Assembly: GCF_036507355.1 (NCBI RefSeq)
Contig: NZ_AP027877.1
Reading direction: 5' to 3' (one strand)
Length of the DNA stretch: 64,000 bases
From: Escherichia coli
GTDB taxonomy: Bacteria; Pseudomonadota; Gammaproteobacteria; Enterobacterales; Enterobacteriaceae
Position numbers and translations under genes: made by a program. Shown in pieces: positions 5,922 to 29,577 of this stretch. Under the pieces are notes generated by a model. It made no database searches and was not told where the DNA came from. It was given only the letters and a program-made list of their open reading frames with translations. Position 1 is the stretch's first letter. Every line of letters begins with the position of its first letter.

Positions 5922-6085
5922 ACTTTTTCGTTGCTTTCGGTTTGTTTGATATCCCGTGGCAACGGCGGCATATATTACTGATTTCAGACTTGAGCGCAAC
6001 AAAAATTTCGATGTAGATCACTCAACTGCTTATGATTCGCACGACACGACCAGAAATAATGCGACTTCTGGTCGTGTGTTATGCA

Positions 6086-6877: not shown

Positions 6878-6886
6878 GCAATTCTC

Positions 6887-7432
<546 letters not shown>

Positions 7433-7442
7433 TTAATTATTA

Positions 7443-8735
7443 TCACAGATACGGCGACCAGGCAGGGAATTTGACCTGTCCATCAGTTGCCGGAAGACGC
7501 GCTTTGAAACGCCCATCTGTAGAAACCAAATTCAGCACGGATCCCATCCCCTGAGAAGAGCTGTAGATTACCATAGTGCCGTTAGGTGCCAGACTTGGCG
7601 TTTCATCCAGGAACGTGGACGACAGAACTTGTACGCCTCCCGTTGCCAGATCTTGTTTGGCAATGTGCTGCTGCCCACCGTTGGAGCTGACCATTACCAT
7701 AAATTTACCGTCGCTGCTGACATCCGCATCCTGGTTCTGCGAACCTTCCCAGGTAATACGTTGTGGCGCACCGCCGTTGATATTCACTTTATAAACCTGT
7801 GGACGACCGGCCTGGTCAGAAGTAAATGCCAGGTTCTGGCTGTCCGGGAACCAGGTCGGTTCGGTATTGTTACTGCGACCATCAGTCACCTGGCGGATCT
7901 GACCAGAAGCCAAATCCATTACGTACAGGTTCAGGCTACCGGTTTTCGACAAGGCGAATGCCAGTTTGCTGCCGTCTGGCGAGAATGCAGGCGCACCGTT
8001 GTGACGCGGGAATGAAGCCACCTGACGTACAGCGCCGTTTGCCAGCGTTTGGATAACCAGCGCGGAACGACCGCTTTCGAAGGTCACATAAGCCAGTTTA
8101 GAACCGTCTGGTGACCACGCCGGGGACATCAGCGGCTGTGGTGAACGGTGAACGACAAACTGGTTGTAACCGTCATAGTCAGATACGCGCAGTTCATACG
8201 GGAACTGACCGCCGTTGGTCTGAACAACGTAGGCAATACGGGTACGGAACGCACCTTTAATACCGGTCAGTTTTTCAAACACTTCATCACTGGCGGTATG
8301 ACCAGCATAACGCAGCCACTGCTTGTTCACTTTGTACGCGTTCTGAGCAAGTACAGTACCCGGTGCGCCGCCAGTGTCAACAAGTTGATAAGCAACATTG
8401 TAAGAACCATCCGGATTCGGAGTGACCTGACCGACAACTACAGCGTCAATACCCAGCGCGGACCATGCAGCTGGTTGTACTTCCTGCGCACTACCCGGCT
8501 GCTGTGGCAGACGAGCGCGATCTAACGGATTAAATTTACCGCTGTTACGCAAGTCGGCAGCAACGATGCCGCCAATATCTTCAGGTGCCGCACCAGGGCC
8601 CGCCCACTGGAAAGGAACAACTCCAATAGGACGACCGGAATCTACACCGCTGTCGATCACAATGCGGACTTCAGCATGAAGAACTGATGCCCACAATATG
8701 AGAAAACCAAATGCTACTCGTAATGCCTGCTTCAT
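7443..8735 (-). CDS. tolB: Tol-Pal system periplasmic beta-propeller protein
   Basis: [26 protein letters not shown]... matches TolB (430 aa from the second Met). Confidence 0.95.
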
Positions 8736-8867
8736 CATATCTCCCTTATCTGGACCGATGGCCCACGATAATTTAGCAGAATGTTAACAAACTAAAATAC
8801 ACAAAACTACCAGAACCCCGTGGCAACCGGTGCCTGATGTTGACCGTCGGAACAGTCAGCATCGCGA

Positions 8868-10133
8868 TTACGGTTTGAAGTCCAATGGCGCGTTTTTGAA
8901 CACTTCATATACTGCCTGGCTTGGTGGTTTCGGGATCTTCGCAAGTTTAGCTGCTGCCAACGCAGCTTGACAAAGTGCGGGATCGCCACCTTCAGGTTTG
9001 ATATCCAGTAACATACCATCGGGTGCCAGTTTTATGCGCAGCGTACAGGTTTTGCCTGCATAGGACGATGCGTCATAGAACTTACTTTCGATAGCAGATT
9101 TAATCTGCCCGGCATAGTTATTGATATCGGCCCCTGATGCGCCATTGTTTTTAGTATTACCACTCCCGGCAGGCGAAGCATTGTTCCCTTTCGCCCCTCC
9201 CCCCGTTTTCGGTGCATTCTTACCAGAGCTTAGCTCACCGAAAATATCATCTGCCTCTGCGGCAGCTTTTGCTGCAGCGGCTTTTTCAGCTGCTGCTTTT
9301 GCAGCTGCCGCTTTTTTGTCTGCGGCGGCTTTTTCTGCCGCTGCTTTCTTATCAGCTGCTGCCTTTTCTGCAGCCGCTTTTTCTGCTGCTTTTTTGTCGG
9401 CTGCAGCTTTCTCTGCTGCCGCTTTCTTATCAGCTGCAGCCTTTTCAGCAGCCGCTTTCTTCTCAGCTTCTGCCTTGGCTTTTTCAGCAGCTTCAGTTGC
9501 CGCTTTCTTTCTTGCTTCAGCTGCAGCTGCTTCTGCCGCTTCCGCTTTCTTCTTCAGCGCCGCAGCGGCTGCCTCGGCTTTTTTCTGCGCTTCGGCTGCG
9601 GCTTTGGCGGCTTCTGCTTCTGCTTTTTTCTTCGCATCTGCAGCCGCTTTCTTCGCTGCATCTTCCGCAGCTTTAGCATCCGCTTCGGCCTTCGCTTTAG
9701 CATCTGCCGCCGCTTTCGCTGCCGCCTCTTCCGCTTGCTTCTGCTTTAACTCGGCCTGTTTTGCGGCTTCTTCAGCCTGCTTTTTCTGTTCCTGAGCAGC
9801 TAACCGCTCTTTCTCAAGTTGCTTCAGGCGTTCCTGTTCAGCCGCTTGTTTCTCACGCAGTTCTTCAGCAGCCTGCTGTTCCTTCATCTTGCGCTGCTCA
9901 TCAGAACGCTTCGCGCTTGATTCCTGGCTTTGCATGCGTTTGTACTGCTCAACTACCGCACCTGAATCAACCATGACAGCGTCGATGGACGAACCACCGC
10001 CGCCTCCAGCTGAAGCTTCTATATTCTCATCGAACGAACTCCAGATCAGCGCCGCAAATAAGATGACATGCAGCACTGCTGAAATAATTATCGCCCGCTT
10101 GAGCTTGTCGTTTTGTTCGGTTGCCTTTGACAC
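8868..10133 (-). CDS. tolA: Tol-Pal system protein TolA
   Basis: 421-aa ORF with N-terminal TM anchor and long Ala/Lys/Glu-rich helical domain II. Confidence 0.95.
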   Translation of the reverse strand: MSKATEQNDKLKRAIIISAVLHVILFAALIWSSFDENIEASAGGGGGSSIDAVMVDSGAVVEQYKRMQSQESSAKRSDEQRKMKEQQAAEELREKQAAEQERLKQLEKERLAAQEQKKQAEEAAKQAELKQKQAEEAAAKAAADAKAKAEADAKAAEDAAKKAAADAKKKAEAEAAKAAAEAQKKAEAAAAALKKKAEAAEAAAAEARKKAATEAAEKAKAEAEKKAAAEKAAADKKAAAEKAAADKKAAEKAAAEKAAADKKAAAEKAAADKKAAAAKAAAEKAAAAKAAAEADDIFGELSSGKNAPKTGGGAKGNNASPAGSGNTKNNGASGADINNYAGQIKSAIESKFYDASSYAGKTCTLRIKLAPDGMLLDIKPEGGDPALCQAALAAAKLAKIPKPPSQAVYEVFKNAPLDFKP

Positions 10134-10197
10134 TCTCGGTTTCCAAAAACTGTTCGCCTGTTACCCGCTCTCTTTCAAGCAAGGGAAACGCAGATGT

Positions 10198-10626
10198 TTA
10201 GATAGGCTGCGTCATTAAACCAACCGATTTCACACCCGCACTATGTAACAAGTTCAGTGCTTTAATTATTTCATCGTAAGGCACATCTTTTGCGCCACCG
10301 ATCAGAAAGACCGTTTTCGGGTTGGCCTTGAAACGGCTGGACACTTCCGCCACCACCTGCTCTGGTGGTAAACGCTCAAGGCGATCTTTCTCAACCACTA
10401 CGGTGTACTGACCAATACCAGACACTTCAACAATCACTGGCGGATTATCGTTACTGCTCACCGCCTGTGATTCAGTTGCGTCTGGCAGATCGACCTCCAC
10501 GCTCTGGGTGATGATGGGCGCTGTCGCCATAAAGATCAGCAACAGCACCAGCAGTACGTCCAGCAACGGTACAATGTTGATTTCGGACTTGAGATCGCGA
10601 CGACCTCGTCCACGCGCTCTGGCCAT
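10198..10626 (-). CDS. tolR: Tol-Pal system protein TolR
   Basis: 142-aa ExbD/TolR-family ORF. Confidence 0.95.
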   Translation of the reverse strand: MARARGRGRRDLKSEINIVPLLDVLLVLLLIFMATAPIITQSVEVDLPDATESQAVSSNDNPPVIVEVSGIGQYTVVVEKDRLERLPPEQVVAEVSSRFKANPKTVFLIGGAKDVPYDEIIKALNLLHSAGVKSVGLMTQPI

Positions 10627-10629
10627 GGC

Positions 10630-11723
<1,094 letters not shown>

Positions 11724-11872
11724 TTTACATCCCGGTAATGCAACAAAAGTTAGAGCTTTTAAACGCTGCTACTATACGCGCGCGATTGAGGTTTGGGAAT
11801 GAGGGCAAGTTAAGGGAGCGTAAAAATTTATGGGCCTGGAGCGGCCCATAATTTTTTAAAGAGAATTCTGAT

Positions 11873-12166
11873 TTAAAAGAAGAAGAAAATCAGCCCGACA
11901 ATGAGAACAATATCGGCAAGCAATGGGCAAAAAATCCCTTGCCAAAGAACCTTCTGCGGACGAAAGCCCACGCCGTGAATCACACCAGCACAGACGGCCC
12001 ACATCAGCAATAAACCATGCCAGATTTCCAGTTCACTGGTCTTCGCGGCAAAACGAGATGGGTCCCAAAACATACATCCTGCTAACAGAAGCGCCATCAC
12101 GAAGGAAAGCGCCCGCAGGGGGCGCTTGTCCATTACCGCATACAAGGTCGCGATAATCTTACTCAT
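11873..12166 (-). CDS. ybgE: cyd operon membrane protein YbgE
   Basis: 97-aa membrane ORF directly downstream of cydX. Confidence 0.85.
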   Translation of the reverse strand: MSKIIATLYAVMDKRPLRALSFVMALLLAGCMFWDPSRFAAKTSELEIWHGLLLMWAVCAGVIHGVGFRPQKVLWQGIFCPLLADIVLIVGLIFFFF

Positions 12167-12279
12167 CAGATGTCTTCTTGACCGGCTTTGCCTGATTCGA
12201 CGTGCTCAAGCGCCAGCGCGGTGATTACCCCAAACGAACAGGCAAGAAGCGTTCCCAGAATCCATGCGAAATACCACAT
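12166..12279 (-). CDS. cydX: cytochrome bd-I small subunit CydX (YbgT)
   Basis: 37-aa ORF MWYFAWILGTLLACSFGVITALALEHVESGKAGQEDI read by hand from the minus strand; absent from the ORF track because of its size. Confidence 0.85.
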   Translation of the reverse strand: MWYFAWILGTLLACSFGVITALALEHVESGKAGQEDI

Positions 12280-12293
12280 TTTTAGCTCCTTAC

Positions 12294-13433
12294 TTAGTAC
12301 AGAGAGTGGGTGTTACGTTCAATATCTTCTTTGGTGATACGACCGAACATTTTCCAGTAACACCAGGCGGTGTAGAGCAGAATGATCGGTACCAGAACCA
12401 CCGCAACCCAGGTCATGACGTTAAGCGTCAGCTGGCTGGAAGTTGCATCCCACATTGTCAGACTTGCGTTCATCATGGTGCTGGACGGCATCACAAACGG
12501 GAACATTGCGATACCGGCTGTCAGGATGATGCAGGCCAGCGTCAGGGAGGAGAACACAAACGCCCACGCGGCTTTATCCATACGTGCAGTCAGGATGGTC
12601 AGCAGCGGCAGAACCACACCCAGTGCCGGAATAGCCCACAGAATTGGCGTGTTGTTGAAGTTAACCAGCCATGCGCCAGCTTCACGAACCACTTCTTTAT
12701 TCAGTGGGTTAGAGGCTGCGTAATGGTCCATTGTCGATTTCACGACATAACCATCGATACCGTACATCACCCATACGCCAGCCAGTGCGAAGCAGACCAG
12801 TGTCACCAGTGCCGCCACCTGAGCCGTTGCACGGGTACGCAGGTGCAGTTCGCCCACGGTACGCATTTGCAGATAGGTTGCGCCCTGAGTAATGATCATC
12901 CCTACGCTCACCACGCCAGCCAGCAGGCCGAACGGGTTAAGCAGCTGGAAGAAGTTACCGGTGTAGTACAGACGCAGATATTCATCAACGTTGAACGGTA
13001 CGCCCTGCAACAGGTTACCGAACGCTACACCAATCACCAGCGGCGGAACGAAGCTACCAATGAAGATGCCCCAGTCCCACATGTTACGCCAGCGGGTTTC
13101 TTCAATCTTGGAGCGGTAGTCAAAACCGACCGGACGGAAGAACAAAGACGCCAGCACGAGGATCATCGCCACATAGAAGCCGGAGAACGCAGCGGCATAG
13201 ACCATCGGCCAGGCAGCAAAGAGTGCGCCGCCCGCGGTGATCAGCCAAACCTGGTTACCGTCCCAGTGTGGAGCAATGGAGTTAATCATAATTCGACGCT
13301 CGGTGTCGTTACGACCGAGGAAACGGGTGAGCATGCCCACCCCCATGTCGAAACCGTCAGTGACTGCAAAACCAATCAGCAGAACGCCAACCAGCAGCCA
13401 CCAGATAAAACGCAATACTTCATAATCGATCAT
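12294..13433 (-). CDS. cydB: cytochrome bd-I ubiquinol oxidase subunit II
   Basis: 379-aa ORF matching CydB. Confidence 0.95.
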   Translation of the reverse strand: MIDYEVLRFIWWLLVGVLLIGFAVTDGFDMGVGMLTRFLGRNDTERRIMINSIAPHWDGNQVWLITAGGALFAAWPMVYAAAFSGFYVAMILVLASLFFRPVGFDYRSKIEETRWRNMWDWGIFIGSFVPPLVIGVAFGNLLQGVPFNVDEYLRLYYTGNFFQLLNPFGLLAGVVSVGMIITQGATYLQMRTVGELHLRTRATAQVAALVTLVCFALAGVWVMYGIDGYVVKSTMDHYAASNPLNKEVVREAGAWLVNFNNTPILWAIPALGVVLPLLTILTARMDKAAWAFVFSSLTLACIILTAGIAMFPFVMPSSTMMNASLTMWDATSSQLTLNVMTWVAVVLVPIILLYTAWCYWKMFGRITKEDIERNTHSLY

Positions 13434-13448
13434 TTGACGACTCCTGTC

Positions 13449-15017
13449 TTAGCGTGCCGGCTGAGTAGTCGTGGAAGACTGCTCAAAGTGATAGCGACCG
13501 GTTTTCAGGCTGCTTGGGCCGAGGCGTGCAAACTTGAACATTAAGAACAATTCTGCCACCAGGAACAGGGTATACAGGCCGCAAATCAGCACCATTGAGA
13601 AGATGAGATCGCCTGCGGTCAGTGACGAGTTCGCCACAGCTGTCGGCAGCACTTCACCGATAGCCCACGGTTGGCGGCCATATTCAGCCACGAACCAGCC
13701 CGCTTCTACAGCAATCCACGGCAGCGGAATACCGTACAGCGCGGCGCGCAGCAGCCATTTTTTCTCGCCAATGCGGTTGCGGATAACACTCCAGAAAGAG
13801 AGCGCGATGATTGCCAGCAGCAGGAAGCCACACGCCACCATGATACGGAACGCGAAGTACAGCGGCGCTACACGCGGAATGGAGTCTTTGGTTGCCTGTT
13901 GAATCTGAGCTTCAGTCGCATCAGCCACGTTTGGCGTATAGCGTTTCAGCAGCAGACCATAACCGAGGTCTTTCTTCATGCTATTGAACTGGTCACGAAC
14001 CGCCTGGTCGGTAGAACCAGAACGCAGCTGTTCGAGCAGAGAGTACGCCTTCATCCCGTTACGAATGCGTTCTTCATGCTGCACCATCAGTTCTTTCAGG
14101 CCGATAACTGGAGTATCCACGGAACGCGTTGCAATGATGCCCAGCGCGTAAGGGATCTGGATCGCAAATTTGTTCGTCTCCTCTTCCTGATCAGGAATGC
14201 CGAACAGAGTAAAGGCAGCAGGCGCAGGTTGCGTTTCCCACTCGGCTTCAATAGCAGCCAGTTTGGTTTTCTGCACGTCGCCCATTTCGTAGCCGGATTC
14301 ATCACCCAGAACAATAACAGACAGAACGGCAGCCATACCGAAGCTGGCAGCGATAGCAAAGGAGCGTTTAGCGAAGGCGAAGTCACGACCTTTCAGCATA
14401 TACCATGCGCTGATACCGAGGATGAACATCGCGCCAGTCACATAACCAGACGCTACAGTGTGAACGAATTTCACCTGAGCAACCGGGTTAAGCACCAGCT
14501 CGGAGAAGCTCACCATCTCCATACGCATAGTTTCAAAGTTGAAATCGGACGCGATTGGGTTTTGCATCCAGCCGTTCGCAACCAGAATCCACAGTGCGGA
14601 CAGGTTTGAACCGAGCGCCACCAGCCAGGTGACACACATATGCTGAACTTTACCCAGACGATCCCAACCGAAGAAGAACAGACCTACAAAGGTGGATTCG
14701 AGGAAGAAGGCCATCAGACCTTCGATTGCCAGCGGCGCACCGAAGATATCCCCTACATAGTGGGAATAGTAAGACCAGTTAGTCCCGAACTGGAACTCCA
14801 TGGTCAGACCGGTAGCCACACCCAGAGCGAAGTTGATACCAAACAACTTGCCCCAGAACTTGGTCATATCTTTATAAATCTGTTTGCCGGAAAGGACGTA
14901 GACCGTTTCCATAATGGCCAGCAGGAACGCCATACCGAGCGTCAGTGGCACAAAAAGGAAGTGGTACATCGCGGTCAAGGCAAACTGTAAGCGCGACAGT
15001 TCGACTATATCTAACAT
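13449..15017 (-). CDS. cydA: cytochrome bd-I ubiquinol oxidase subunit I
   Basis: [41 protein letters not shown]... matches CydA; start at the second Met gives 522 aa. Confidence 0.95.
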
Positions 15018-15823
15018 CATGACTCCTTGCTCATCGCATGAAGACTCCGAGAGTGAACCCCGTTAGAAAGGGTCACACGCATGCCCCAATACAAAATTAT
15101 TTGCTCGCCTCTATCGTTGCCATTTCATCAAAAGAGGAAAAGACAATGATAAAAAAAGTTACAAATATGTTAATGAATAAACCAAATTGATCCCGTAATT
15201 ATATTACGCCGCAAAATCCTTACAATAAACAGGTTTTTATTGAGCAAATTTGCATTTTTCGACAGTGATCAATTTATAGCGAAATTGTCACGATCTCACC
15301 AATTTGATCTACGACAATTTATCGTGTTTTGCAGAATTTTTTCAAGAATTAAAAATTGATTTATATCAAAACCAATCAAATATGTTAATTATGTATAAAC
15401 CATAGATCATTGGTGATTTTATTGTTAATTTATTGTGAAATATTTATGCAACACAATTATTACAATGAAAAGGTATAGATAAAAAACCAGTATTTTATTT
15501 AACAGAACCGCCTTATCCACTTTTTATAATACCAATTGATTAGAGTAGCCAATTTGTTGCTATTTTACATAACATATTTTTATCAAAGTTAATTGATTGT
15601 TACCTTTATGAGCACCGACCGTAAGCCCGTTATGTTATTGTTTCATTAGTAATAATCACTTAAATGTATCGATGAAACAGGTATGACTTACCGGGAGTGA
15701 TTGTTTCTGAGTGAACAGAGGCCACTTTCGCCTGATAAATGAAAAATGAGCGATTTTTGCAAGTTAGTTTTTCTATAGCCGAGTACGCTCAGCGCCTCGC
15801 TTGATTACAATGAGGTTGCTGCT

Positions 15824-16768
15824 ATGAGTCCTGATAATATCGGTTCGGCTGTCAATCGCTTCTCAGGTTGGCCATCTAATGATTCTCTAAAAACAGATAA
15901 AGAATCAATGACATCACCCGTGACTGTGCAGGTAATAAAGATGATTGCCGCCATCCTTGACCCACATCGGATAGTCGTTGGAATCGATACACTTTATACA
16001 ACGCAGCGCGAAACATTTACCTCAGAGAGTCAACAGCTCATTGAATCAGCATTGCAAACACTTCATGTGATGAATTTAAATAATCTGGAAACAAATCGCG
16101 ATGAAGAAGGTCACTATCTGGCTTTTGAATATAACGTTGACACCTCTGACAGAATAACCGTTTCTGCTTATAATGAAAAAAAGCCTGGCTGCTATGGCCA
16201 ATGTCTTGTAATACAGGATGACGAAACAGACTTATTTAACCTGATAAAAATTAAAATTTTCGAAGCCAGGCATAATTATGTCGCTCAATTGATGAGCGAT
16301 CCGGAATTTATGTTCAAATTCAGTTATAGCGCTCAACAAAATAGATTAGAACCTCATCTTCTGGTTCCCGCTTATTTCCCTCTAAAAACAAACGAACCGG
16401 TTACGCAAGAGGATGTACTGTTACTTTATCGTTTCTTTAAAATGAATGATGATTTTAATAAATTAACATCAGATGAATACATGAGTATCCTGACACCTCT
16501 GATGAAGTGTGAGCGTAGCGTCCACGACAACAACAGGTATGTGACGGGCAAAGATACCCTTCTTCTGGACTATCCTCCTTCTGGTAACCAGATACATTTC
16601 CATGTTTTCCCTGACGAATCAGCAACACTAGTCCTTTATTTTTCAAACAATGACCTTGAATGTTTCGTCTTTGAAAGAGATATTCCTAGCCAGTATCGCT
16701 TTTTCAAAATGTTTACCAATCTGGCACTGGTTATAGATCAGTTAACCGAAGCCAATAAAATACTTTAA
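15824..16768 (+). CDS. hypothetical protein (314 aa), AT-rich island ORF of unknown function
   Basis: long ORF in AT-rich DNA at the edge of the island; no family recognised by eye; not part of the K-12 backbone as I recall it. Confidence 0.55.
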   Translation: MSPDNIGSAVNRFSGWPSNDSLKTDKESMTSPVTVQVIKMIAAILDPHRIVVGIDTLYTTQRETFTSESQQLIESALQTLHVMNLNNLETNRDEEGHYLAFEYNVDTSDRITVSAYNEKKPGCYGQCLVIQDDETDLFNLIKIKIFEARHNYVAQLMSDPEFMFKFSYSAQQNRLEPHLLVPAYFPLKTNEPVTQEDVLLLYRFFKMNDDFNKLTSDEYMSILTPLMKCERSVHDNNRYVTGKDTLLLDYPPSGNQIHFHVFPDESATLVLYFSNNDLECFVFERDIPSQYRFFKMFTNLALVIDQLTEANKIL

Positions 16769-16848
16769 TTTTCTATATATCCCTATGGCTAATATTGCTA
16801 AACAATGCCTGGGGATTAATTTTTATTACTCACGGAAAGATTTAAATA

Positions 16849-17271
16849 ATGATACCATCTCAGATCTCTTTCAATACCCTTCCAGTCAATGCAACATACG
16901 CTTCAGAGACAACAGTTGACACACAAAAATTCTCTGACATCCTCTACTCAGCGGGGTGTTCCCTAAAGGATATGGCTTATCTGAGCAGATGTCTGGCATC
17001 AATACACCCGACTATCGCCAAAAACATTTATGAAACAGAAAATCTCAGCGATCAAAAATTACTGCATATTGATTGCCGTAGTACAAATGAAATCAAGATA
17101 AATATCTTTTTTGGTCAGCAAAGAGAAGGGTTAATTGAAATTAGTTCTGACACAGTTATTTTTTCGATACTGTCTTCATTGATTGACTCCGCCATTTCTA
17201 AATTTCAACACCAAAACCCGGTTAACGGTTTAGTTAATCCTGAAATATTGTATGAGGATTATACTGATTAA
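16849..17271 (+). CDS. hypothetical protein (140 aa), small acidic protein of unknown function
   Basis: co-oriented 80 bp downstream of the 314-aa ORF, same AT-rich composition. Confidence 0.5.
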   Translation: MIPSQISFNTLPVNATYASETTVDTQKFSDILYSAGCSLKDMAYLSRCLASIHPTIAKNIYETENLSDQKLLHIDCRSTNEIKINIFFGQQREGLIEISSDTVIFSILSSLIDSAISKFQHQNPVNGLVNPEILYEDYTD

Positions 17272-17818: not shown

Positions 17819-18268
17819 ATGAAGAAAGCAACACTTGTGATTGGCGTTATTGGCGCGGACTGCCATGCAGTAGGCAATAAAGTTCTGGACCGCGTTTTTA
17901 GCAACCACGACTTCAGAGTCATTAATCTGGGCGTAATGGTCAGCCAGGACGAATATATTGATGCTGCCATTGAAACTGGCGCTGACGCGATTGTCGTCTC
18001 CTCTATCTATGGGCATGGCGATATCGACTGTCTGGGCATGCGCGAACGCTGCATCGAGCGTGGACTGGGGGACATCCTGCTCTATGTGGGCGGTAACCTG
18101 GTGGTCGGAAAACATGACTTCGCTGACGTGGAAACCAAATTCAAAGAGATGGGATTTGATCGCGTCTTTGCCCCAAGTCATGACTTAGAAGATGTTTGTC
18201 AGCTGATGGCCCACGATATCAACCAACGTCATGACATTGATACTCGTATTCTTGAAGAGGCTATCTGA
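17819..18268 (+). CDS. glmS: glutamate mutase sigma (S) subunit, B12-binding (methylaspartate mutase small subunit)
   Basis: [24 protein letters not shown]... contains the DxHxxG cobalamin-binding motif and resembles Clostridium GlmS/MutS; start set at the Met preceded by aaaggatt. Confidence 0.88.
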
Positions 18269-19656
18269 TGCAAATCGTCTCTGTCGATATTGGATCGACG
18301 TGGACCAAAGCAGCCCTCTTCACCCGGGAGGGGGACGCGTTAACGTTGGTTAACCACGTACTGACCCCAACCACCACCCATCATCTGGCGAAGGGGTTTT
18401 TCTCCAGCCTGAACCAAGTGTTAAACGTAGATAATGCCCTCCCCCTGTTAAACAGCGGTGAGGTTGCATTGAAGTATTCCTCCTCTGCCAAAGGTGGGCT
18501 GGCGGTTGCCGCAATGGGATTGGTGCCTTCTATCACCCTGGAAACCGCGAAAGTAACCGCTCACTCTGCGGGTGCTAAAATTGCGCAATATTACGCCTAC
18601 AAGCTGAACCGCCGTGATATCCAGGCACTGGAAGAAACGCAGCCCGATATTCTCTTGTTCACCGGCGGCACCGACGGCGGAGAAGAAAGCTACGGACTGA
18701 ATAACGCCCGTGTGCTGGCAGAATCCAAACTCGACTGCGCCATTATTTATGCCGGAAACCGGGATATTCAGGACGAGGTGCAGGAGCTCCTCGGGCATAA
18801 AGACCTGACCATCGTCGACAATGTTCTGCCCGATCTTGACCATCCGAACCCTTTAGCCGCACGCCAGGCTATTTGCGACATATTCCTTAAACGCATCGTT
18901 AAAGGGAAAGGGCTGGATGTCATTGTTGATAAAACAGGCGAAGAACCAATGCCGACACCATGGACGGTCTTTGAACTGGTCAAGGCAATCAGTAACGTCG
19001 ATCACAGCTGGAAAGAGTTCATGCTGATCGACATGGGCGGCGCAACCACCGATGTTTATTCCGTCTGTGCCAACACGCTCTCGCCCGACACCGTTTTACA
19101 CGGCGTACCGGAACCCTTCGTAAAACGGACGGTGGAAGGCGATCTGGGAATGCGCGTCTCGGCAGTGGTGGTTGGTGAAAGTGCGAAAGAGTTAGTCAAT
19201 GTGAATTTTGCTCAGCAACCCGCACAGCTGGACGCTTTTTATCATTACCTCCGTCATCTAGTCGCTCATCCCGACTACTTACCCGCAAATGCAGAAGAGA
19301 AATATTTCGATACCGTCCTGGCCGGACTGTGTGTGGGTTATGCCACCGAAAGACATGCGGGCACCAAAAAAGAGGTCTGCACCTGCGTCGGCAATGTCGA
19401 TTTACAGATGGGACGTGACCTGACAACCGTGCGTAAAGTCGTCGGATCCGGCGGATGGCTCTCGCGTGCCAGTCAGTTCGATATGCATCACTGGTTGAAA
19501 TACCGCGAGTTAAACGACGACGGTAAACGCATTCTCTTACCGACCGAATTTGAATATTACCGCGATTCCCGGGGGCTATTACCACTGCTGGCAAACGTCG
19601 CCAGAGTCGATCCGCTGGCCGCCGCGCGCACCAGTATTCAATGCTTAACCCTATAA
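18268..19656 (+). CDS. glmL: glutamate mutase accessory protein GlmL/MutL (actin-fold ATPase)
   Basis: 462-aa ORF between the S and E subunit genes as in clostridial mutS-mutL-mutE operons. Confidence 0.8.
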   Translation: MQIVSVDIGSTWTKAALFTREGDALTLVNHVLTPTTTHHLAKGFFSSLNQVLNVDNALPLLNSGEVALKYSSSAKGGLAVAAMGLVPSITLETAKVTAHSAGAKIAQYYAYKLNRRDIQALEETQPDILLFTGGTDGGEESYGLNNARVLAESKLDCAIIYAGNRDIQDEVQELLGHKDLTIVDNVLPDLDHPNPLAARQAICDIFLKRIVKGKGLDVIVDKTGEEPMPTPWTVFELVKAISNVDHSWKEFMLIDMGGATTDVYSVCANTLSPDTVLHGVPEPFVKRTVEGDLGMRVSAVVVGESAKELVNVNFAQQPAQLDAFYHYLRHLVAHPDYLPANAEEKYFDTVLAGLCVGYATERHAGTKKEVCTCVGNVDLQMGRDLTTVRKVVGSGGWLSRASQFDMHHWLKYRELNDDGKRILLPTEFEYYRDSRGLLPLLANVARVDPLAAARTSIQCLTL

Positions 19657-19674: not shown

Positions 19675-21120
19675 ATGGAACTTCGAAATAAGAAATTAAC
19701 CCATGACGAATTCATGACCGAGCGGCAACAGGTACTGAAAACCTGGGAAACCGGCAAGGATGTTGAAAACTTTGAAGATGGCGTTAAATACCAACAAACC
19801 ATCCCTGAGCATAAACGCTTCTCTCTTGCGCTGCTGAAAGCAGACAAGGAAGGTAAAACCCTTAGCCAACCGCGCGCAGGTGTGGCGCTGATGGACGAAC
19901 ACATCGAACTGCTGAAAACACTACAAGAAGAGTGCGATCTGCTGCCAAGCACCATCGATGCATATACCCGTCTGAATCGGTACGAAGAAGCGGCTGTAGG
20001 GATTAAAAAATCCATCGAAGCCGGAACCTCTAAACTGAACGGTTTACCGGTAGTTAACCATGGTGTCGCAGCTTGCCGTCGCCTCACCGAAACCCTGCAA
20101 AAACCGCTACAGATCCGCCACGGCACGCCAGATGCGCGTCTGCTGGCTGAAATCTCAATGGCCAGCGGCTTTACCAGTTATGAAGGCGGTGGCATTTCCT
20201 ACAACATTCCGTATGCCAAACGCGTAACGCTGGAAAAATCGATCCGCGACTGGCAGTACTGCGACCGTTTAATGGGGATGTATGAAGAACACGGGATCCG
20301 CATCAACCGCGAACCGTTTGGCCCACTAACGGGTACGCTGATCCCGCCGTTTATCTCGCATTCTATCGCGATAATCGAAGGCTTGCTGGCACTGGAACAG
20401 GGTGTGAAATCTATCACCGTTGGTTATGGCCAGGTCGGCAGCCTGACGCAGGATGTTGCGGCGATCCAGTCTCTGCGTGAACTTGCACACGAATATTTTC
20501 AGAGCTATGGCTATACCGACTATGAATTGAGTACCGTGTTTCACCAGTGGATGGGCGGCTTTCCGGAAGACGAATCGAAAGCGTTCGCTATTATCTCCTG
20601 GGGTGCAGCCGTCGCGGGGATGTCTGGTGCCACCAAAGTCATCACCAAAAGTCCGCACGAAGCCTGGGGTATCCCGACTGCCGCTGCCAACATTCAGGGG
20701 CTGAAAGCCTCCCGCCAGATGCTCAACATGGTCAATGAGCAGAAATTCCCGCCGTGCCCTGCGGTTGAACTGGAAATTGAACTGATTAAGAGCGAGGTTC
20801 GCGCTGTACTGAATAAAGTGTTCGAACTGGGTAATGGTGATATTGCGCGCGGTACGGTGCTGGCATTTGAAGCGGGCGTACTGGATGTGCCATTTGCGCC
20901 AGCCGCCTGCAACGCGGGCAATATTCTTCCGGTCCGTGACAACACCGGCGCGATACGCGTACTGGAAGCCGGAGCCGTTCCATTGCCAAAAGATATTCTC
21001 GATCTCCACCACGATTACGTTGCGGAACGCGCACGCTTTGAAGGACGCCAACCGACATTCCAGATGGTTGTAGATGACATCAATGCTGTATCCCACAGTA
21101 AATTAATAGGAAGACCATAA
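19675..21120 (+). CDS. glmE: glutamate mutase epsilon (E) catalytic subunit
   Basis: 481-aa ORF MELRNKKLTHDEFMTERQQVL... with extended similarity to clostridial GlmE (QPRAGVALMDEHIELL, PSTIDAYTR, GGGISYNIPYAK, REPFGPLTGTL, FQMVVDD). Confidence 0.9.
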   Translation: MELRNKKLTHDEFMTERQQVLKTWETGKDVENFEDGVKYQQTIPEHKRFSLALLKADKEGKTLSQPRAGVALMDEHIELLKTLQEECDLLPSTIDAYTRLNRYEEAAVGIKKSIEAGTSKLNGLPVVNHGVAACRRLTETLQKPLQIRHGTPDARLLAEISMASGFTSYEGGGISYNIPYAKRVTLEKSIRDWQYCDRLMGMYEEHGIRINREPFGPLTGTLIPPFISHSIAIIEGLLALEQGVKSITVGYGQVGSLTQDVAAIQSLRELAHEYFQSYGYTDYELSTVFHQWMGGFPEDESKAFAIISWGAAVAGMSGATKVITKSPHEAWGIPTAAANIQGLKASRQMLNMVNEQKFPPCPAVELEIELIKSEVRAVLNKVFELGNGDIARGTVLAFEAGVLDVPFAPAACNAGNILPVRDNTGAIRVLEAGAVPLPKDILDLHHDYVAERARFEGRQPTFQMVVDDINAVSHSKLIGRP

Positions 21121-22361
21121 TGAAAATAAAACAGGCTCTGTTCACCGCTGGCTACTCCTCATTCTATTTCGATGACCAGCAGGCGATAAAAAACGGAGCG
21201 GGTCATGACGGCTTTTTTTATACCGGGGAGCCGGTAACACAGGGGTTTAACGCCGTTCGTCAGGCCGGGGAGTGCGTATCGGTACAGTTGATTCTGGAAA
21301 ACGGCGCGGTCGCTGTAGGTGACTGTGCTGCCGTACAGTATTCCGGGGCAGGTGGTCGCGACCCACTGTTCCTCGCAGAGCTCTTTATTCCGTTCCTCAA
21401 CGACCATATCAAGCCATTACTGGTAGGCCGCGATGTGGATGCTTTCCTGCCGAATGCCCGTTTCTTCGACAAATTGCGTATTGACGGCAACTTGCTGCAT
21501 ACCGCCGTGCGCTACGGATTATCACAGGCGCTGCTTGATGCTACCGCGCTGGCAACCGGCCGTCTGAAAACTGAAGTGGTCTGTGATGAATGGCAGTTGC
21601 CACGCGTGGCGGAATCCATTCCATTATTTGGTCAGAGCGGCGACGATCGATATATCGCCGTCGATAAGATGATCCTTAAGGGCATCGACGTGCTGCCCCA
21701 TGCGCTGATTAATAACGTCGAAGAGAAGCTGGGCTTTAAAGGTGAAAAACTGCGCGAATATGTCCGCTGGTTGTCGGATCGCATTCTAAGCAAGCGCACC
21801 AGCGCACGCTACCACCCAACCTTGCACATCGATGTATACGGCACTATCGGTCTGATCTTCGATATGGATCCGCTTCGCTGTGCGCAATACATCGCCAGCC
21901 TGGAAAAAGAAGCGCAAGGCCTGCCGCTCTACATTGAAGGGCCGGTCGATGCCGGTAACAAGCCCGATCAAATTCGCCTGCTGACCGCGATTACCAAAGA
22001 GCTGACGCGCCTCGGTTCCGGCGTGAAAATTGTGGCCGATGAATGGTGTAACACCTACCAGGATGTTGTTGATTTCACTGATGCCGCCAGTTGTCACATG
22101 GTGCAAATCAAAACCCCGGATCTGGGCAGTATTCACAACATCGTCGATGCGGTTCTTTACTGCAACAGCCACAGCATGGAAGCGTACCAGGGCGGCACCT
22201 GCAATGAAACTGATGTCAGTGCCCGCACCTGTGTCCACGTCGCCCTTGCCGCTCGCCCTATGCGTATGCTGGTAAAGCCAGGGATGGGCTTTGACGAAGG
22301 CCTCGATATCGTCTTCAACGAAATGAATCGTACTATCGCGCTGTTGCAGGCTAAGGATTAA
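21120..22361 (+). CDS. mal: 3-methylaspartate ammonia-lyase
   Basis: 413-aa ORF; motifs GDCAAVQYSGAGGRDPLF, PHALINNVEEKLG, HMVQIKTPDLG match clostridial methylaspartase (enolase superfamily). Confidence 0.9.
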   Translation: MKIKQALFTAGYSSFYFDDQQAIKNGAGHDGFFYTGEPVTQGFNAVRQAGECVSVQLILENGAVAVGDCAAVQYSGAGGRDPLFLAELFIPFLNDHIKPLLVGRDVDAFLPNARFFDKLRIDGNLLHTAVRYGLSQALLDATALATGRLKTEVVCDEWQLPRVAESIPLFGQSGDDRYIAVDKMILKGIDVLPHALINNVEEKLGFKGEKLREYVRWLSDRILSKRTSARYHPTLHIDVYGTIGLIFDMDPLRCAQYIASLEKEAQGLPLYIEGPVDAGNKPDQIRLLTAITKELTRLGSGVKIVADEWCNTYQDVVDFTDAASCHMVQIKTPDLGSIHNIVDAVLYCNSHSMEAYQGGTCNETDVSARTCVHVALAARPMRMLVKPGMGFDEGLDIVFNEMNRTIALLQAKD

Positions 22362-22364
22362 CAA

Positions 22365-22565
22365 ATGGCTCGTTCTTTTAAAGTCTTATCGCCAACAGCA
22401 ATCCTCGGGTATGGATTCCCGGAAGAGAGCTTCCGCAAAGCGATGGCAGAATCACCCGATCTGATCGCCGTTGATGCAGGCTCTTCCGATCCAGGCCCCC
22501 ACTACCTCGGGCAGGCAAACCGTTTACCGATCGCGCAGGGGTCAAGCGCGATCTGCGCTATATGA
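22365..22565 (+). CDS. N-terminal segment of a DUF1446 (AtuA-like) protein, separated from the main ORF by a frame change
   Basis: 66-aa ORF ending in ATGA overlap with the next ORF; the next ORF's frame is open upstream to 22475, so the two likely form one gene. Confidence 0.45.
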   Translation: MARSFKVLSPTAILGYGFPEESFRKAMAESPDLIAVDAGSSDPGPHYLGQANRLPIAQGSSAICAI

Positions 22566-23734
22566 TCACCGCAGGCGTGCAAAATAATATACCGGTGGTG
22601 ATCGGAACGGCCGGCGGTTCTGGTGCCGCTCCACACCTGGAGTGGTGCCGAGAAATAATTCATGAGATTGCCCAGGAAGAGCACCTCTCGTTCTCGATGG
22701 CGTTGATCCCGGCAGACGTTGACAAAGCCATCGTCCACCAGGCGCTGGATAACGGCAAAATCACGGCGCTGGATTTTGTCCCGCCGTTAACCCACGACGC
22801 GATTGACGAAAGTACGTATATCGTCGCGCAAATGGGCATCGAACCCTTCCAGCGGGCGCTAAAAGAAGGCGCGCAAGTGGTGCTGGGTGGGCGCGCTTAC
22901 GACCCGGCCTGCTTTGCTGCGCTACCGATCATGCAAGGCTTTGATGAAGGTCTGGCGCTGCATTGTGGGAAAATCCTTGAATGCGCGGCAATCGCCGCAA
23001 CGCCCGGCTCAGGCTCTGACTGTGCGATGGGCATCATTGATGACAACGGCTTTACGCTGAAGACATTTAATCCGAAGCGTAAATTTACCGAAACGTCAGC
23101 AGCTGCACACACACTGTATGAGAAATCCGATCCCTACTTCCTGCCAGGACCTGGCGGCGTGTTGAACCTGAAAGGCTGCACATTTAAAGCAGTCAATGAC
23201 GGCGAAGTCTACGTCAGCGGTTCTAAGCATGAAGAAACGCCGTATGCCCTGAAACTGGAAGGTGCACGACGGGTGGGCTTCCGCTGTCTGACCATCGCCG
23301 GAACGCGCGACCCGATTATGATCGCCGGGATCGATAAACTCATCGATGAAGTCAAAACCAGCGTTTCGCGTAACCTGTCGCTCGACGATGACAGCATTCG
23401 CATCAATTTCCACCTGTACGGCAAAAACGGGGTGATGGGAGACCATGAACCGATGCAAACTGCCGGGCATGAGCTGGGGATTGTTCTTGATGTAGTTGCA
23501 CCGACCCAGGAAATTGCCAATAGCGTTTGCTCGCTGGTGCGCTCTACCATGCTGCACTACGGCTATGAAAACCGCATCGCTACCGCAGGTAATCTGGCGT
23601 TCCCGTTCTCCCCTTCTGATATCCAGGGCGGGCCGGTATACGAATTTTCCATATATCACCTGATTGAAGCCAACGACGCTCTGCGTTTTGATTTCCATAT
23701 TGAACAGGTGACGCCAGAAGGAGTTCAGGCATGA
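22562..23734 (+). CDS. DUF1446 (AtuA-like) family protein, main part
   Basis: 390-aa ORF; combined with the upstream 66-aa ORF gives about 456 aa, the usual DUF1446 size; followed by its usual small DUF4387 partner. Confidence 0.65.
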   Translation: MITAGVQNNIPVVIGTAGGSGAAPHLEWCREIIHEIAQEEHLSFSMALIPADVDKAIVHQALDNGKITALDFVPPLTHDAIDESTYIVAQMGIEPFQRALKEGAQVVLGGRAYDPACFAALPIMQGFDEGLALHCGKILECAAIAATPGSGSDCAMGIIDDNGFTLKTFNPKRKFTETSAAAHTLYEKSDPYFLPGPGGVLNLKGCTFKAVNDGEVYVSGSKHEETPYALKLEGARRVGFRCLTIAGTRDPIMIAGIDKLIDEVKTSVSRNLSLDDDSIRINFHLYGKNGVMGDHEPMQTAGHELGIVLDVVAPTQEIANSVCSLVRSTMLHYGYENRIATAGNLAFPFSPSDIQGGPVYEFSIYHLIEANDALRFDFHIEQVTPEGVQA

Positions 23735-24048
23735 AACAGTCAATTGTCTCACTGGCGCAAGTCATTCGTTCGAAAAATGCCGGACCTTACGAACTGGTTT
23801 TAGATATTTTATTTAAAACGAAAGAAAACTATGAGCGAGTTAAATCATCAGGGCAATTAACCCCAGAACTGATTGCGCGCTTATATCATGTTGAACCTGA
23901 CTTTATTCATCGTATTGTCTGGTTTGATCCTTCTAACGCAGTAAAAATCGTCATGCCACGAGATATTATCTCCGGGAATGTAGGTGACAATGATGTCTAT
24001 GGTGCACAGCAACATGCACCTTTATTAAATATGAGTTTCGATTTGTAA
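23731..24048 (+). CDS. DUF4387 family small protein (partner of DUF1446/AtuA-like proteins)
   Basis: 105-aa ORF translationally coupled (ATGA overlap) to the DUF1446 ORF. Confidence 0.6.
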   Translation: MKQSIVSLAQVIRSKNAGPYELVLDILFKTKENYERVKSSGQLTPELIARLYHVEPDFIHRIVWFDPSNAVKIVMPRDIISGNVGDNDVYGAQQHAPLLNMSFDL

Positions 24049-24208: not shown

Positions 24209-25489
24209 ATGAAGAAAATAAGTTTAACCACGATGATTCTTTTGGCGCTGGTACTTGGAATGATTATCGGCGTAGTGCTCAATAACACTGCTTCACCGGA
24301 AACAGCAAAACTCTATGCGCAAGAAATATCGATATTCACGACGATTTTCTTACGACTGATAAAAATGATTATCGCTCCGTTAGTGGTCTCTACCCTGGTG
24401 GTAGGTATTGCTAAAATGGGCGATGCCAAAGCCCTTGGTCGTATTTTTTCTAAAACACTCTTTTTATTTATTTGCGCCTCATTGCTGTCAATTGCCTTAG
24501 GCTTGATAACGGTAAATTTCTTCATGCCAGGCACAGGAATTAATTTTGTTGCACACGGTGCCGAAACCACAGGAGTGGTCGCGTCAGAACCCTTTACGCT
24601 AAAAGTATTTATTTCGCATGCTTTCCCCACCAGCATTGTCGATGCCATGGCGCACAATGAAATTTTGCAAATCGTGGTGTTCTCAATTTTCCTCGGCTGT
24701 AGCCTGACGGCGATTGGCGAGAAAGGCAGCGCCATCGTTCACGCCTTAGATTCGCTGGCACATGCCATGTTAAAGCTCACTGGCTACGTCATGCTCTTCG
24801 CTCCCCTGACCGTATTCGCCGCTATTTCAGCATTGATTGCTGAACGAGGACTGGCAGTTATGGTGAGCGCCGGGATCTTTATGGGTGAATTTTATTTCAC
24901 CATGTTATTACTTTGGGTGCTGCTTATCGGTCTGGCCATCGTTTATGTCGGCCCCTGCATCAGACGCCTGACCCGCGCCCTTTCGGAACCCGCCCTGCTG
25001 GCATTTACCACATCCAGTTCTGAAGCGGCTTTTCCGGGAACGCTTGAAAAACTGGAGCAATTTGGCGTTTCCCCCAAAATTGCCAGCTTTGTCTTACCCA
25101 TTGGCTACTCATTTAATCTCGTTGGATCAATGGCCTACTGCTCCTTCGCCACAGTTTTCATCGCCCAGGCCTGCAATATCCATTTATCCATCGGTGAGCA
25201 AATCACCATGCTGTTGATCCTGATGTTGACCTCGAAAGGAATGGCTGGCGTACCACGCGCCTCAATGGTGGTTATCGCCGCCACGCTCAACCAGTTCAAT
25301 ATTCCGGAAGCGGGGCTGATCTTGCTGATGGGCGTTGATCCGTTCCTTGATATGGGGCGTTCCGCGACAAACGTCATGAGCAACGCAATGGGCGCTGCGA
25401 TGGTGAGTCGGTGGGAAGGCGAACATTTCGGCGAGGGCTGTCGGGGTAAAGCATTAAAACCCAATGAATCGAACGTTGCTCTGCCCTGA
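24209..25489 (+). CDS. dicarboxylate/amino acid:cation symporter (DAACS family; glutamate/aspartate or C4-dicarboxylate transporter)
   Basis: polytopic membrane ORF with DAACS-like N-terminus; start chosen at MKKISL preceded by a GGAGGA ribosome-binding site (ORF track starts 21 nt earlier at 24188). Confidence 0.8.
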   Translation: MKKISLTTMILLALVLGMIIGVVLNNTASPETAKLYAQEISIFTTIFLRLIKMIIAPLVVSTLVVGIAKMGDAKALGRIFSKTLFLFICASLLSIALGLITVNFFMPGTGINFVAHGAETTGVVASEPFTLKVFISHAFPTSIVDAMAHNEILQIVVFSIFLGCSLTAIGEKGSAIVHALDSLAHAMLKLTGYVMLFAPLTVFAAISALIAERGLAVMVSAGIFMGEFYFTMLLLWVLLIGLAIVYVGPCIRRLTRALSEPALLAFTTSSSEAAFPGTLEKLEQFGVSPKIASFVLPIGYSFNLVGSMAYCSFATVFIAQACNIHLSIGEQITMLLILMLTSKGMAGVPRASMVVIAATLNQFNIPEAGLILLMGVDPFLDMGRSATNVMSNAMGAAMVSRWEGEHFGEGCRGKALKPNESNVALP

Positions 25490-25596: not shown

Positions 25597-27249
25597 ATGT
25601 CCAAACCATTTATCTGGCAAGAACCGTTTCTACAAAATAAAGACGGTACAGAATATACATTAATTAGCGATCAACATATTACAGTAACGGAATTAGACGG
25701 CGAAGAAGTGATAAAAATCGCTCCTGAAGCATTAACGCTGCTTGCCCGGCAGGCATTTTATGAAGCCTCTTTTTTCTTACGTTCCGCTCATTTGCAACAG
25801 GTCGCCAGCATTCTTAACGATCAGCAGGCCAGCAGTAATGATAAATACGTTGCGTTGCAGTTATTACGTAATGCTGAAGTCTCAGCAAAAGGGGTATTAC
25901 CCAACTGTCAGGATACCGGCACCGCAACTATTGTTGCCAGTAAAGGGCAACAGATATGGACCGGAAGTAACGACGCCGAAGCTTTAAGTAAAGGCATTTA
26001 CAGTACTTTCCAGGAAAATAATCTGCGCTTTTCACAAAATGCGCCGCTGGATATGTATACCGAAGTCAATACGCAAACCAATCTCCCGGCGCAGATTGAT
26101 ATCAGCGCTGTCGCTGGTGATGAGTACCATTTTCTCTGTGTTAATAAAGGGGGCGGCTCCGCCAATAAAGCCGCGCTTTATCAGGAAACCAAATCCTTAT
26201 TGCAACCAGAAAAACTGACCGCATTTTTAATCGAAAAAATGAAATCGCTGGGCACCGCTGCCTGCCCGCCTTACCACATCGCCTTTGCCGTCGGAGGGCT
26301 TTCAGCCGATCAAACCTTAAAAGTTGCCAAGCTGGCCTCAACGAAATATTACGACAATTTGCCCACCAGCGGAAACGAGCAGGGACAAGCATTCCGTGAT
26401 ATTGAGCTGGAAAAAGCGTTGCTCGAGGCCAGTCAGCAATTTGGTATTGGTGCACAATTTGGGGGGAAATATTTCGCTCATGATATTCGCGTCATTCGTC
26501 TGCCGCGTCACGGTGGCTCTTGCCCGATAGCTATGGCGCTCTCCTGTTCTGCCGATCGCAATATCAAAGCAAAAATTAACAAACACGGTATCTGGCTAGA
26601 AAAACTCGAACACAATCCGGGGCAATATATTCCAGCCTCATTGCGGGAAGAAAATCACGCGCAACATGTACAACTGGATCTAAACCGTCCGTTGCGTGAC
26701 GTGATGCTGGATCTCGCCAGATTACCGGTAGGTACCCGCGTGTCGTTAAGTGGTCCCATCGTAGTGGCGCGCGATATCGCCCACGCCAAAATAAAAGCGC
26801 GGCTGGATAGCGGCGAATCGATGCCGGAGTACCTGAAGCATCATATTGTCTATTACGCTGGCCCGGCGAAAACACCGGAGAACATGGCCTGCGGTTCACT
26901 GGGTCCAACCACGGGCGGTCGAATGGATGGTTATGTCGATACCTTCCAGGCGGCCGGCGGCAGTCTGGTGATGTTATCGAAAGGTAACCGCAGCCAGCAG
27001 GTCACCGATGCCTGTCACAAACATGGCGGCTTCAATCTGGGAAGTATTGGCGGTGCAGCTGCGTTACTGGCGCAAGAATATGTCAAAAGTCTGCGTTGCC
27101 TGGAATACCCGGAGCTGGGTATGGAAGCGGTGTGGATGATGGAAGTGGAAAATCTGCCCGCATTCATCCTGGTAGATGATAAAGGCAATAATTTCTTTAG
27201 TCAGTTTGAGCAGCAACACCGCTGCGCCAGTTGCCCTGCGGGACATTAA
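25597..27249 (+). CDS. fumD: class I (Fe-S) fumarate hydratase homologue, mesaconase/fumarase FumD type
   Basis: 550-aa ORF collinear with E. coli FumA ([40 protein letters not shown]); clustered with glutamate mutase and methylaspartase as described for fumD. Confidence 0.85.
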
Positions 27250-27864: not shown

Positions 27865-27897
27865 CTGCGCCTGGCATCCCGCCAGGCGCAGGTTTTA
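27865..27897. terminator. bidirectional intrinsic terminator between the adenosyltransferase gene and the convergent LysR gene
   Basis: ctgcgcctggc-atcc-gccaggcgcag hairpin followed by gtttta. Confidence 0.6.
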
Positions 27898-28557
27898 CAT
27901 CTCCTGCGGTACGACCGATTTCGCCAGCAACCATTCACGAAATTGCTGCAAGTGCGGTGAGTCAGACTTCTCTTCCTGCCACGTCATAATAAAACGATTA
28001 CCGGTACGAATAGGCACATCACAGGGAATCACCATATCGCCACTATCCAAATCATGTTGAATAGCGAAACGTGGTAACAGCGCCACGCCGAGATTAGAGC
28101 GCACGGCGGCAATCAGCATTGAAAGCAAATCGAAACGTGGTCCGTTATTGACCAACGGACTGCTAACGCCAGATAAAGCAAACCACTCTTCCCAGCCAGT
28201 AATACGGGTGCTTTGATGCAGAAGCGGTAACTCAGTAAGCAGTTCTGCCACTGACAGCTTTTGATCGGACATTGCAAGCAAACTGCCGCTGCATACCGGC
28301 AAAATCTCCTCATCAAAGAGATATTCTACTTCCGCCCAGGGCGCGCAAAAATTTTCGCGCATAATGACAGCATCGTACTCCCGATTAAGAAAATCGCCGT
28401 TATTAGCTAAAGAATGAATATTAACAATAATATCGGGATGTAACTTTGTGAATTCATGTAAATTTGGGATCAACCAGTGGGTACTAAAAGTAGGATTAAC
28501 GGCAAGTTCAATAACCTGAACCGTAGGCTGCCAGGTCATAATGGTATTGGTATCGCG
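27895..28557 (-). pseudogene. LysR-family transcriptional regulator, C-terminal effector-domain portion (gene interrupted by IS1)
   Basis: 214-aa ORF from an internal Met; reading frame continues upstream (RDTNTI) to the IS1 junction. Confidence 0.8.
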
Positions 28558-28612
28558 GGTGATGCTGCCAACTTACTGATTTAGTGTATGATGGTGTTTT
28601 TGAGGTGCTCCA

Positions 28613-28888
28613 GTGGCTTCTGTTTCTATCAGCTGTCCCTCCTGTTCAGCTACTGACGGGGTGGTGCGTAACGGCAAAAGCACCGCCGGACATCAGCGCT
28701 ATCTCTGCTCTCACTGCCGTAAAACATGGCAACTGCAGTTCACTTACACCGCTTCTCAACCCGGTACGCACCAGAAAATCATTGATATGGCCATGAATGG
28801 CGTTGGATGCCGGGCAACAGCCCGCATTATGGGCGTTGGCCTCAACACGATTTTACGTCACTTAAAAAACTCAGGCCGCAGTCGGTAA
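28613..28888 (+). CDS. insA: IS1 protein InsA
   Basis: 91-aa [46 protein letters not shown]... identical in character to IS1 InsA. Confidence 0.95.
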
Positions 28889-29310
28889 CCTCGCGCATAC
28901 AGCCGGGCAGTGACGTCATCGTCTGCGCGGAAATGGACGAACAGTGGGGCTATGTCGGGGCTAAATCGCGCCAGCGCTGGCTGTTTTACGCGTATGACAG
29001 GCTCCGGAAGACGGTTGTTGCGCACGTATTCGGTGAACGCACGATGGCGACGCTGGGGCGTCTTATGAGCCTGCTGTCACCCTTTGACGTGGTGATATGG
29101 ATGACGGATGGCTGGCCGCTGTATGAATCCCGCCTGAAGGGAAAGCTGCACGTAATCAGCAAGCGATATACGCAGCGAATTGAGCGGCATAACCTGAATC
29201 TGAGGCAGCACCTGGCACGGCTGGGACGGAAGTCGCTGTCGTTCTCAAAATCGGTGGAGCTGCATGACAAAGTCATCGGGCATTATCTGAACATAAAACA
29301 CTATCAATAA
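28807..29310 (+). CDS. insB: IS1 transposase InsB frame (expressed as InsAB' by -1 frameshifting)
   Basis: 167-aa ORF in the -1 frame overlapping the insA 3' end, typical IS1 organisation. Confidence 0.9.
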
Positions 29311-29325
29311 GTTGGAGTCATTACC

Positions 29326-29577
29326 GGTATCGCGTTCCAGCTTATTTAATGTTTCTTTTACTATCCCCAGGTAATACTTCCCAGCATCATTAAGAAAAAT
29401 GCGTTTTTTAGAGTGTGAAAATAACGGAGTACGTAAAAATTCCTCCAGCGCACTTACTTGTCTGAATACTGCACTTTGGGTTAACGCTAACTCCTCTGCC
29501 GCTCTGGTATAACTTTCATGACGTGCGACGACCTCAAAAGTCACCAGCAGTTCCGTTTTAGGTATTTTCCCTCGCAT
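29326..29577 (-). pseudogene. LysR-family transcriptional regulator, N-terminal HTH portion (gene interrupted by IS1)
   Basis: MRGKIPKTELLVTFEVVARHESYTRAAEELALTQSAVFRQVSALEEFLRTPLF... is a LysR-type HTH; the frame runs into IS1 after ...KLERDT. Confidence 0.8.

Follow-up and report, generated by a model that had tools for sequence, protein, structure and literature searches.

Closest described systems

Earlier work on enterobacteria (Kronen and Berg 2015, PMC4682846) described a gene cluster that encodes glutamate mutase GlmSE with GlmL, methylaspartate ammonia-lyase and a DUF1446 protein of unknown function, together with a glutamate transporter and the mesaconase FumD, as well as a cobalamin adenosyltransferase and a LysR regulator. 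The same study detected no citramalate lyase activity, did not settle what becomes of citramalate, and noted that DUF1446 genes are misannotated as methylaspartate ammonia-lyase, an error of long standing. That gap is filled by CmlAB, an enzyme of Raoultella planticola that cleaves (S)-citramalate to pyruvate and acetate, a function taken from PDB entry names and from one preprint that used the enzyme. One of these entries, 9EVF, was released on 2025-10-08 as "Citramalate lyase - ADP - pyruvate complex". NCBIfam holds no model for either CmlA or CmlB.

The 64,000-nucleotide stretch of Escherichia coli DNA analysed here (the window) carries exactly the cluster of Kronen and Berg, in the order glmS-glmL-glmE-mal-cmlA-cmlB-gltP-fumD-cobO, and every gene but cmlA is full length. 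The genes that surround cmlA are as follows.

17819-18268, plus strand: glmS, full length
18268-19656, plus strand: glmL, full length
19675-21120, plus strand: glmE, full length
21120-22361, plus strand: mal, methylaspartate ammonia-lyase, full length
23731..24048, plus strand: cmlB (DUF4387, PF14330), 105 aa, intact, with a 4-nt overlap with the cmlA stop
24209-25489, plus strand: dicarboxylate/amino-acid symporter, full length
25597-27249, plus strand: fumD, class I fumarase/mesaconase, full length (FumD function from PMC4682846)
27259-27861, plus strand: cobO, full length

The "DUF1446 protein downstream of mal" of O157:H7 (PMC4682846) is the same gene in the same operon position, and the DNA of the O157:H7 orthologue (L002) is 99% identical. 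The O157:H7 gene is intact and was of unknown function in 2015, whereas the window copy is split.

Identity of the split gene

Sequence comparison identifies the split gene as cmlA, which encodes citramalate lyase subunit A (the large subunit of CmlAB), at approximately 92% identity to CmlA. An intact E. coli orthologue matches chain A of PDB 9ERQ/9EVF, "Citramalate lyase, subunit A (cmlA)", over residues 1-456 (E = 1e-292), and an AlphaFold2 model made with 30 homologues (pLDDT 85) resembles 9evf_A with a TM score of 0.91 at 92% identity. When repaired, the window gene is collinear with the R. planticola protein over all 456 residues at the same approximate 92% identity. As in CmlA systems, CmlB (DUF4387) lies directly downstream in the same methylaspartate-pathway operon; the ORF at 23731-24048 matches PDB 9erq_B, "Citramalate lyase, subunit B (cmlB)", with E = 5e-57. 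Unlike CmlA, a chain of 456 aa, the window copy is one G short, is divided into fragments of 66 and 390 aa, and leaves residues 50-66 unencoded.

In the intact protein, AtuA (PF07287) spans residues 63-394 (E = 7e-19), and the 66-aa ORF alone gave no Pfam match. A previous reading of the window from its letters (the sequence-only reading) had named the gene DUF1446. The family was correct, but the protein is no longer only a domain of unknown function. The 390-aa fragment (BED23233.1) was deposited as "3-methylaspartate ammonia-lyase", and "acyclic terpene utilization AtuA family protein" is the RefSeq name of the intact gene. In place of AtuA/DUF1446 or methylaspartate ammonia-lyase, the family should be called citramalate lyase subunit A.

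A one-base deletion divides cmlA

The two fragments of cmlA and the lesion that separates them are located as follows.

22365..22565, plus strand: cmlA 5′ fragment, 66-aa ORF; GenBank BED23232.1 (hypothetical protein, VEE46_30000)
22509..22511, plus strand: lesion, a 1-bp deletion at a G3 run with a -1 frame change, from the alignment, indel list and repair test
22562..23734, plus strand: cmlA 3′ fragment, 390-aa ORF, native residues 67-456, with the AtuA (PF07287) match; GenBank BED23233.1

At the cmlA position, PapM-32-1, O157:H7 PV15-279 and EC-1639 each have one 1371-nt CDS that encodes 456 aa. All intact orthologues examined carry G4 where the window has G3, so that the context reads CTCGGGGCAGG in the intact genes and CTCGGGCAGG in the window at 22509-22511. 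This single G is the sole indel in the alignment and indel list that separates the window's cmlA from the intact orthologues. Inserting one G into the window restored an uninterrupted 456-aa ORF (the repair test), and two substitutions, R104Q and I326L, separate the repaired CmlA from its closest E. coli protein. Since cmlA carries only a single lesion, the pseudogene is young.

The alignment with orthologues that the sequence-only reading had proposed thus yields three intact E. coli genes with a single frame and one extra G, in keeping with its suggestion that one DUF1446/AtuA gene of about 456 aa, the length of the intact orthologues, is split by a frame change. Its ORF coordinates and lengths, the ATGA overlap, the frame open to 22475 and a C5 run at 22496-22500 are all correct on the sequence. 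Its bracket for the frameshift, 22480-22560, does contain 22509-22511; the C5 run, its candidate for the mutated site, is identical in the intact genes and is ruled out.

The 66-aa ORF consists of codons 1-49 of native CmlA followed by codons 50-66 (QANRLPIAQGSSAICAI), which are out of frame and end at a TGA, the first stop in the shifted frame. At the junction, the native peptide would read ...HYLGAGKPFTDR and the out-of-frame one ...HYLGQANR. The 390-aa ORF starts at an ATG that is the internal Met67 of intact CmlA, and its frame stays open 5′ of this ATG back to 22475, preceded by a TGA at 22472-22474. The two ORFs share an ATGA overlap at 22562-22565, which simply results from the native codons TAT-ATG-ATC (Tyr66-Met67-Ile68). 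Native residues 50-66 are therefore encoded by neither ORF, and the 390-aa ORF is the remainder of cmlA, not a separately evolved gene. The uninterrupted frame of about 456 aa that is expected of the CmlA family is absent from the window; its frame being interrupted by the 1-bp deletion, the window copy is a pseudogene of the family and not a functional member.

Probable consequence for the protein and the pathway

Residues 1-66 are among the best conserved of the protein, with 29 invariant columns among 30 homologues reaching down to 61% identity. The 66-aa ORF is therefore not unrelated to DUF1446 but holds the conserved N-terminus of the family. Nine invariant residues (G51, K52, F54, T55, V60, K61, R62, D63 and L64) fall within the lost stretch. 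The structural model places beta1 at 5-9, alpha1 at 20-28, beta2 at 33-37, a conserved loop at 38-56 and alpha2 at 57-73, with Met67 inside alpha2; from this AlphaFold2 model the 390-aa product is predicted to be without beta1, alpha1, beta2, the conserved loop and half of alpha2.

These observations are best explained by a recent, strain-level frameshift pseudogene of cmlA, a reading in which we place high confidence. One G was lost from the G4 run, most plausibly through replication slippage. The frame then shifts after codon 49, adds 17 wrong residues and ends at a TGA that overlaps the Met67 codon, leaving residues 50-66, with their nine family-invariant positions, missing from both pieces and beta1 and beta2 detached from the fold. 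With residues 50-66 lost and the strands detached, the enzyme would most probably be inactive. Reinitiation at Met67 through the ATGA may yield a truncated protein, itself presumably inactive. Loss of CmlA function is very likely, judging from conservation and the predicted structural position of the missing part. The methylaspartate (mesaconate) route of glutamate breakdown, which this operon encodes, would then stop at citramalate, with its last step lost.

The regulator of the operon has suffered a separate insertion.

27895..28557, minus strand: 3′ remnant of a LysR-family regulator, 214-aa ORF, divergently placed and truncated by IS1
28558..29325, plus strand: IS1, 768 bp; IS1 transposase NF033558, E = 2e-42

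The IS1 is flanked by the 9-bp target duplication GGTATCGCG (28549-28557 and 29326-29334), and its 768 bp are extra relative to PapM-32-1 (L001). The LysR remnant is missing its HTH domain, and its match to LysR profiles is confined to their effector-binding part. Among the sequences fetched, IS1 sits in the LysR gene of the window only; L001, L004 and L005 have a complete LysR gene of 301 aa. L004, which is nearly identical to the window, has the frameshift with an intact LysR gene, so the frameshift preceded IS1, and the operon's LysR regulator was destroyed later. This loss fits a decaying locus. Together, the frameshift and the IS1-disrupted LysR gene predict that methylaspartate glutamate catabolism is incomplete in this strain.

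Distribution of the allele

A megablast search with positions 22300-23800 (1501 nt) against 5426 complete RefSeq E. coli genomes found the cmlA locus in 1122 of them, and all 70 of the 70 matches listed span 1502 nt against the 1501-nt query. An 81-nt query across the site, at ≥99% identity, recovered the window's GGG allele in 0 of 1120 complete RefSeq E. coli genomes with the locus, and the allele is therefore rare. The window's own genome lies outside the complete-genome collection searched, where its best match is 99.4%. Beyond E. coli, the homologues aligned (down to 61% identity) come from Enterobacterales, Accumulibacter, Riflebacteria, Lentisphaerae and others and are single proteins of 450-465 aa; across the many phyla listed, nearly all homologues are likewise single 450-465-aa proteins, with rare exceptions. 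A two-ORF layout shared by orthologues, which would have spoken for two conserved proteins, is thus not what is seen.

The GGG allele is present on different haplotypes. Over 2924 nt, contig L006 differs by this one G alone from six complete genomes, among them E. coli 7/2, 50579417 and AR_0067, and it is about 2% divergent from the window. Since GGG occurs on the haplotype of L006 and on that of the window, the deletion arose independently at least twice. Recurrence was surveyed by predicting the peptides that would follow from 1-nt deletions or insertions at homopolymer runs and looking up their exact sequences in public assemblies; the counts below are rough, as they vary with the gene caller and require an exactly identical peptide.

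cmlA C5 (22496), deletion peptide: 27 contigs
cmlA G4 (22509), the window's allele: 14 contigs
cmlA G4 (22539), deletion peptide: 20 contigs
mal G4 runs, deletion peptides: 3-6 contigs
cmlB C4, deletion peptide: 15 contigs
glmL runs, deletion peptides: 21-201 contigs
cydA G4 (core gene), deletion peptide: 17 contigs, partly visibly error-laden long-read assemblies
nadA G4 (core gene), deletion peptide: at least 24 contigs
sdhB C4 (core gene), deletion peptide: 0 contigs

The idea that the cmlA G4 run is an unusual hotspot was rejected, as the counts for neighbouring and core genes are comparable (0 to 201 contigs). The count of the window's allele is unremarkable, and it is one among many homopolymer-slippage alleles. 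Other slippage alleles of the operon resemble it in being one-base deletions at G/C runs and differ in lying at other positions.

In glmL, which is intact in the window, deletion peptides from the G4/T5 and C5 runs (18393-18401 and 18441-18445) were found on 201 and 21-23 contigs, respectively. A related 47-aa GlmL fragment, outside the predicted peptides, takes its name from O145:H28 and occurs on 955 contigs, so a glmL frameshift may be fixed in a large E. coli lineage.

Possible sequencing error and possible selected switching

Homopolymer indels are a typical error of long-read assembly, and the window derives from a 4.64-Mb complete-genome contig, so the genome could in truth read GGGG with an intact cmlA. 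Among the core genes, 11 of the 17 contigs with the equivalent cydA G4-deletion peptide belong to the class above 1 Mb, and in the one cydA locus shown, from an NCTC assembly, the gene is broken into several pieces. G4-deletion "alleles" of core genes do occur in error-prone long-read assemblies, and an error in any single record would be possible if that record stood alone. The window's allele, however, does not stand alone. The exact 66-aa product is encoded on the 14 contigs, all from other samples. The same GGG is found in the separately deposited draft isolate assembly GCA_905398585.1 (L004), of the same lineage and 99.98% identical to the window over 13.5 kb (3 mismatches), in the Logan contig L007, which has the window's haplotype, and in several metagenome contigs with SPAdes- or MEGAHIT-style names. 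A run of four bases is not error-prone for short reads. With the same allele in independent and near-identical assemblies, an error is improbable, and to judge from these sequences the cmlA GGG allele is probably real.

The public assemblies are not uniformly clean. Logan contig L013 (DRR424364), at 1-5034, carries the wild-type GGGG yet shows 13 gaps against the window, with glmE and mal in many pieces, and looks error-rich; some frameshift "alleles" among public assemblies are therefore artefacts.

A different reading accepts the deletion but not its neutrality. The same G was lost on two or more haplotypes, and public assemblies contain deletions at each of the three cmlA runs; this could conceivably mean that the C5 at 22496 and the G4 runs at 22509 and 22539, all within the first 180 nt, are recurrent and possibly reversible on/off sites under selection rather than points of neutral decay. 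If so, E. coli lineages would repeatedly turn off citramalate lyase, and hence methylaspartate glutamate fermentation, under selection. We give this reading only a slim chance, and the counts for the neighbouring and core genes are comparable to those for cmlA, as noted above. A simple frameshift pseudogene of cmlA remains preferred.

A possible functional split gene or recoding

The stop-start geometry of the locus offers a further possibility, in which the reinitiated 390-aa product, alone or with the 66-aa peptide, would form an active lyase with CmlB. An ATGA overlap can support translational coupling, and the rest of cmlA carries no further lesion. Against this, the 25 nt before the ATG at 22562 hold no Shine-Dalgarno motif, the ATG itself encodes Met67, conserved and internal to the intact protein, and the TGA arises only from native codons read out of frame. 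Residues 50-66, nine of them invariant, are in neither product, and the 390-aa piece is also without beta1, alpha1, beta2 and half of alpha2. A natural split is suggested by none of the homologues listed. It is very doubtful, then, that the two pieces make a working enzyme. An internal promoter for the 390-aa ORF was also considered and rejected, as there is no promoter-like site before the ATG at 22562.

Recoding, by programmed -1 frameshifting or by transcriptional slippage, would instead restore a full-length CmlA-like protein. Genes with programmed -1 frameshifting, such as dnaX and IS1 insAB′, have two overlapping ORFs joined by a -1 shift, as does the window, where the frames overlap from 22475 to 22562 and a shift of -1 would be needed. 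The downstream RNA (22512-22620) folds somewhat better than its shuffles (z = -2.0, with 10 of 200 shuffles as stable), though it is the same sequence as in the intact genes and the RNA 3′ of the lesion is ordinary coding sequence of intact cmlA. Unlike dnaX and IS1 insAB′, the window lacks both a slippery heptamer and a conserved arrangement, and the ancestral gene was a single ORF. In the zero frame within 22475-22562 there is no X XXY YYZ heptamer, only single-site A-AAC, T-TTA and similar motifs, and slippage at A-AAC, a weak site, would still put another residue in place of the invariant K52. A run of three G is far too short for transcriptional slippage. The two-ORF layout is absent from all 1120 complete E. 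coli genomes that were compared, which argues that no evolved recoding signal is present here, and recoding is barely credible. Of the options that the sequence-only reading had offered, an inactivating mutation is thus favoured, a sequencing error unlikely and programmed frameshifting without support.

Annotation and other features of the window

The window's cmlA is an ordinary pseudogene of a gene whose function is already known, and it represents one more case of an E. coli accessory operon eroding through homopolymer indels, with little import beyond annotation. For that annotation, the CDSs deposited as "hypothetical protein" and "3-methylaspartate ammonia-lyase" should be merged into a single cmlA pseudogene.

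Between cydA and glmS (15824-17271), at the island's edge, lie ORFs of 314 and 140 aa that have no Pfam match on record and are hypothetical in RefSeq. The core flank at 1-16300 (aroG, tolA, tolB, cydA, cydB and others) reaches at best 99.1% identity to complete RefSeq E. coli, its best matches being O169:H41 strains; with identity no higher than this, the strain's lineage is poorly represented among complete RefSeq genomes. On the minus strand of the same flank, positions 4964-5921 hold a cluster of seven tRNA genes, of which five are Lys-UUU and two Val-UAC, interspersed with two RtT-like repeats.
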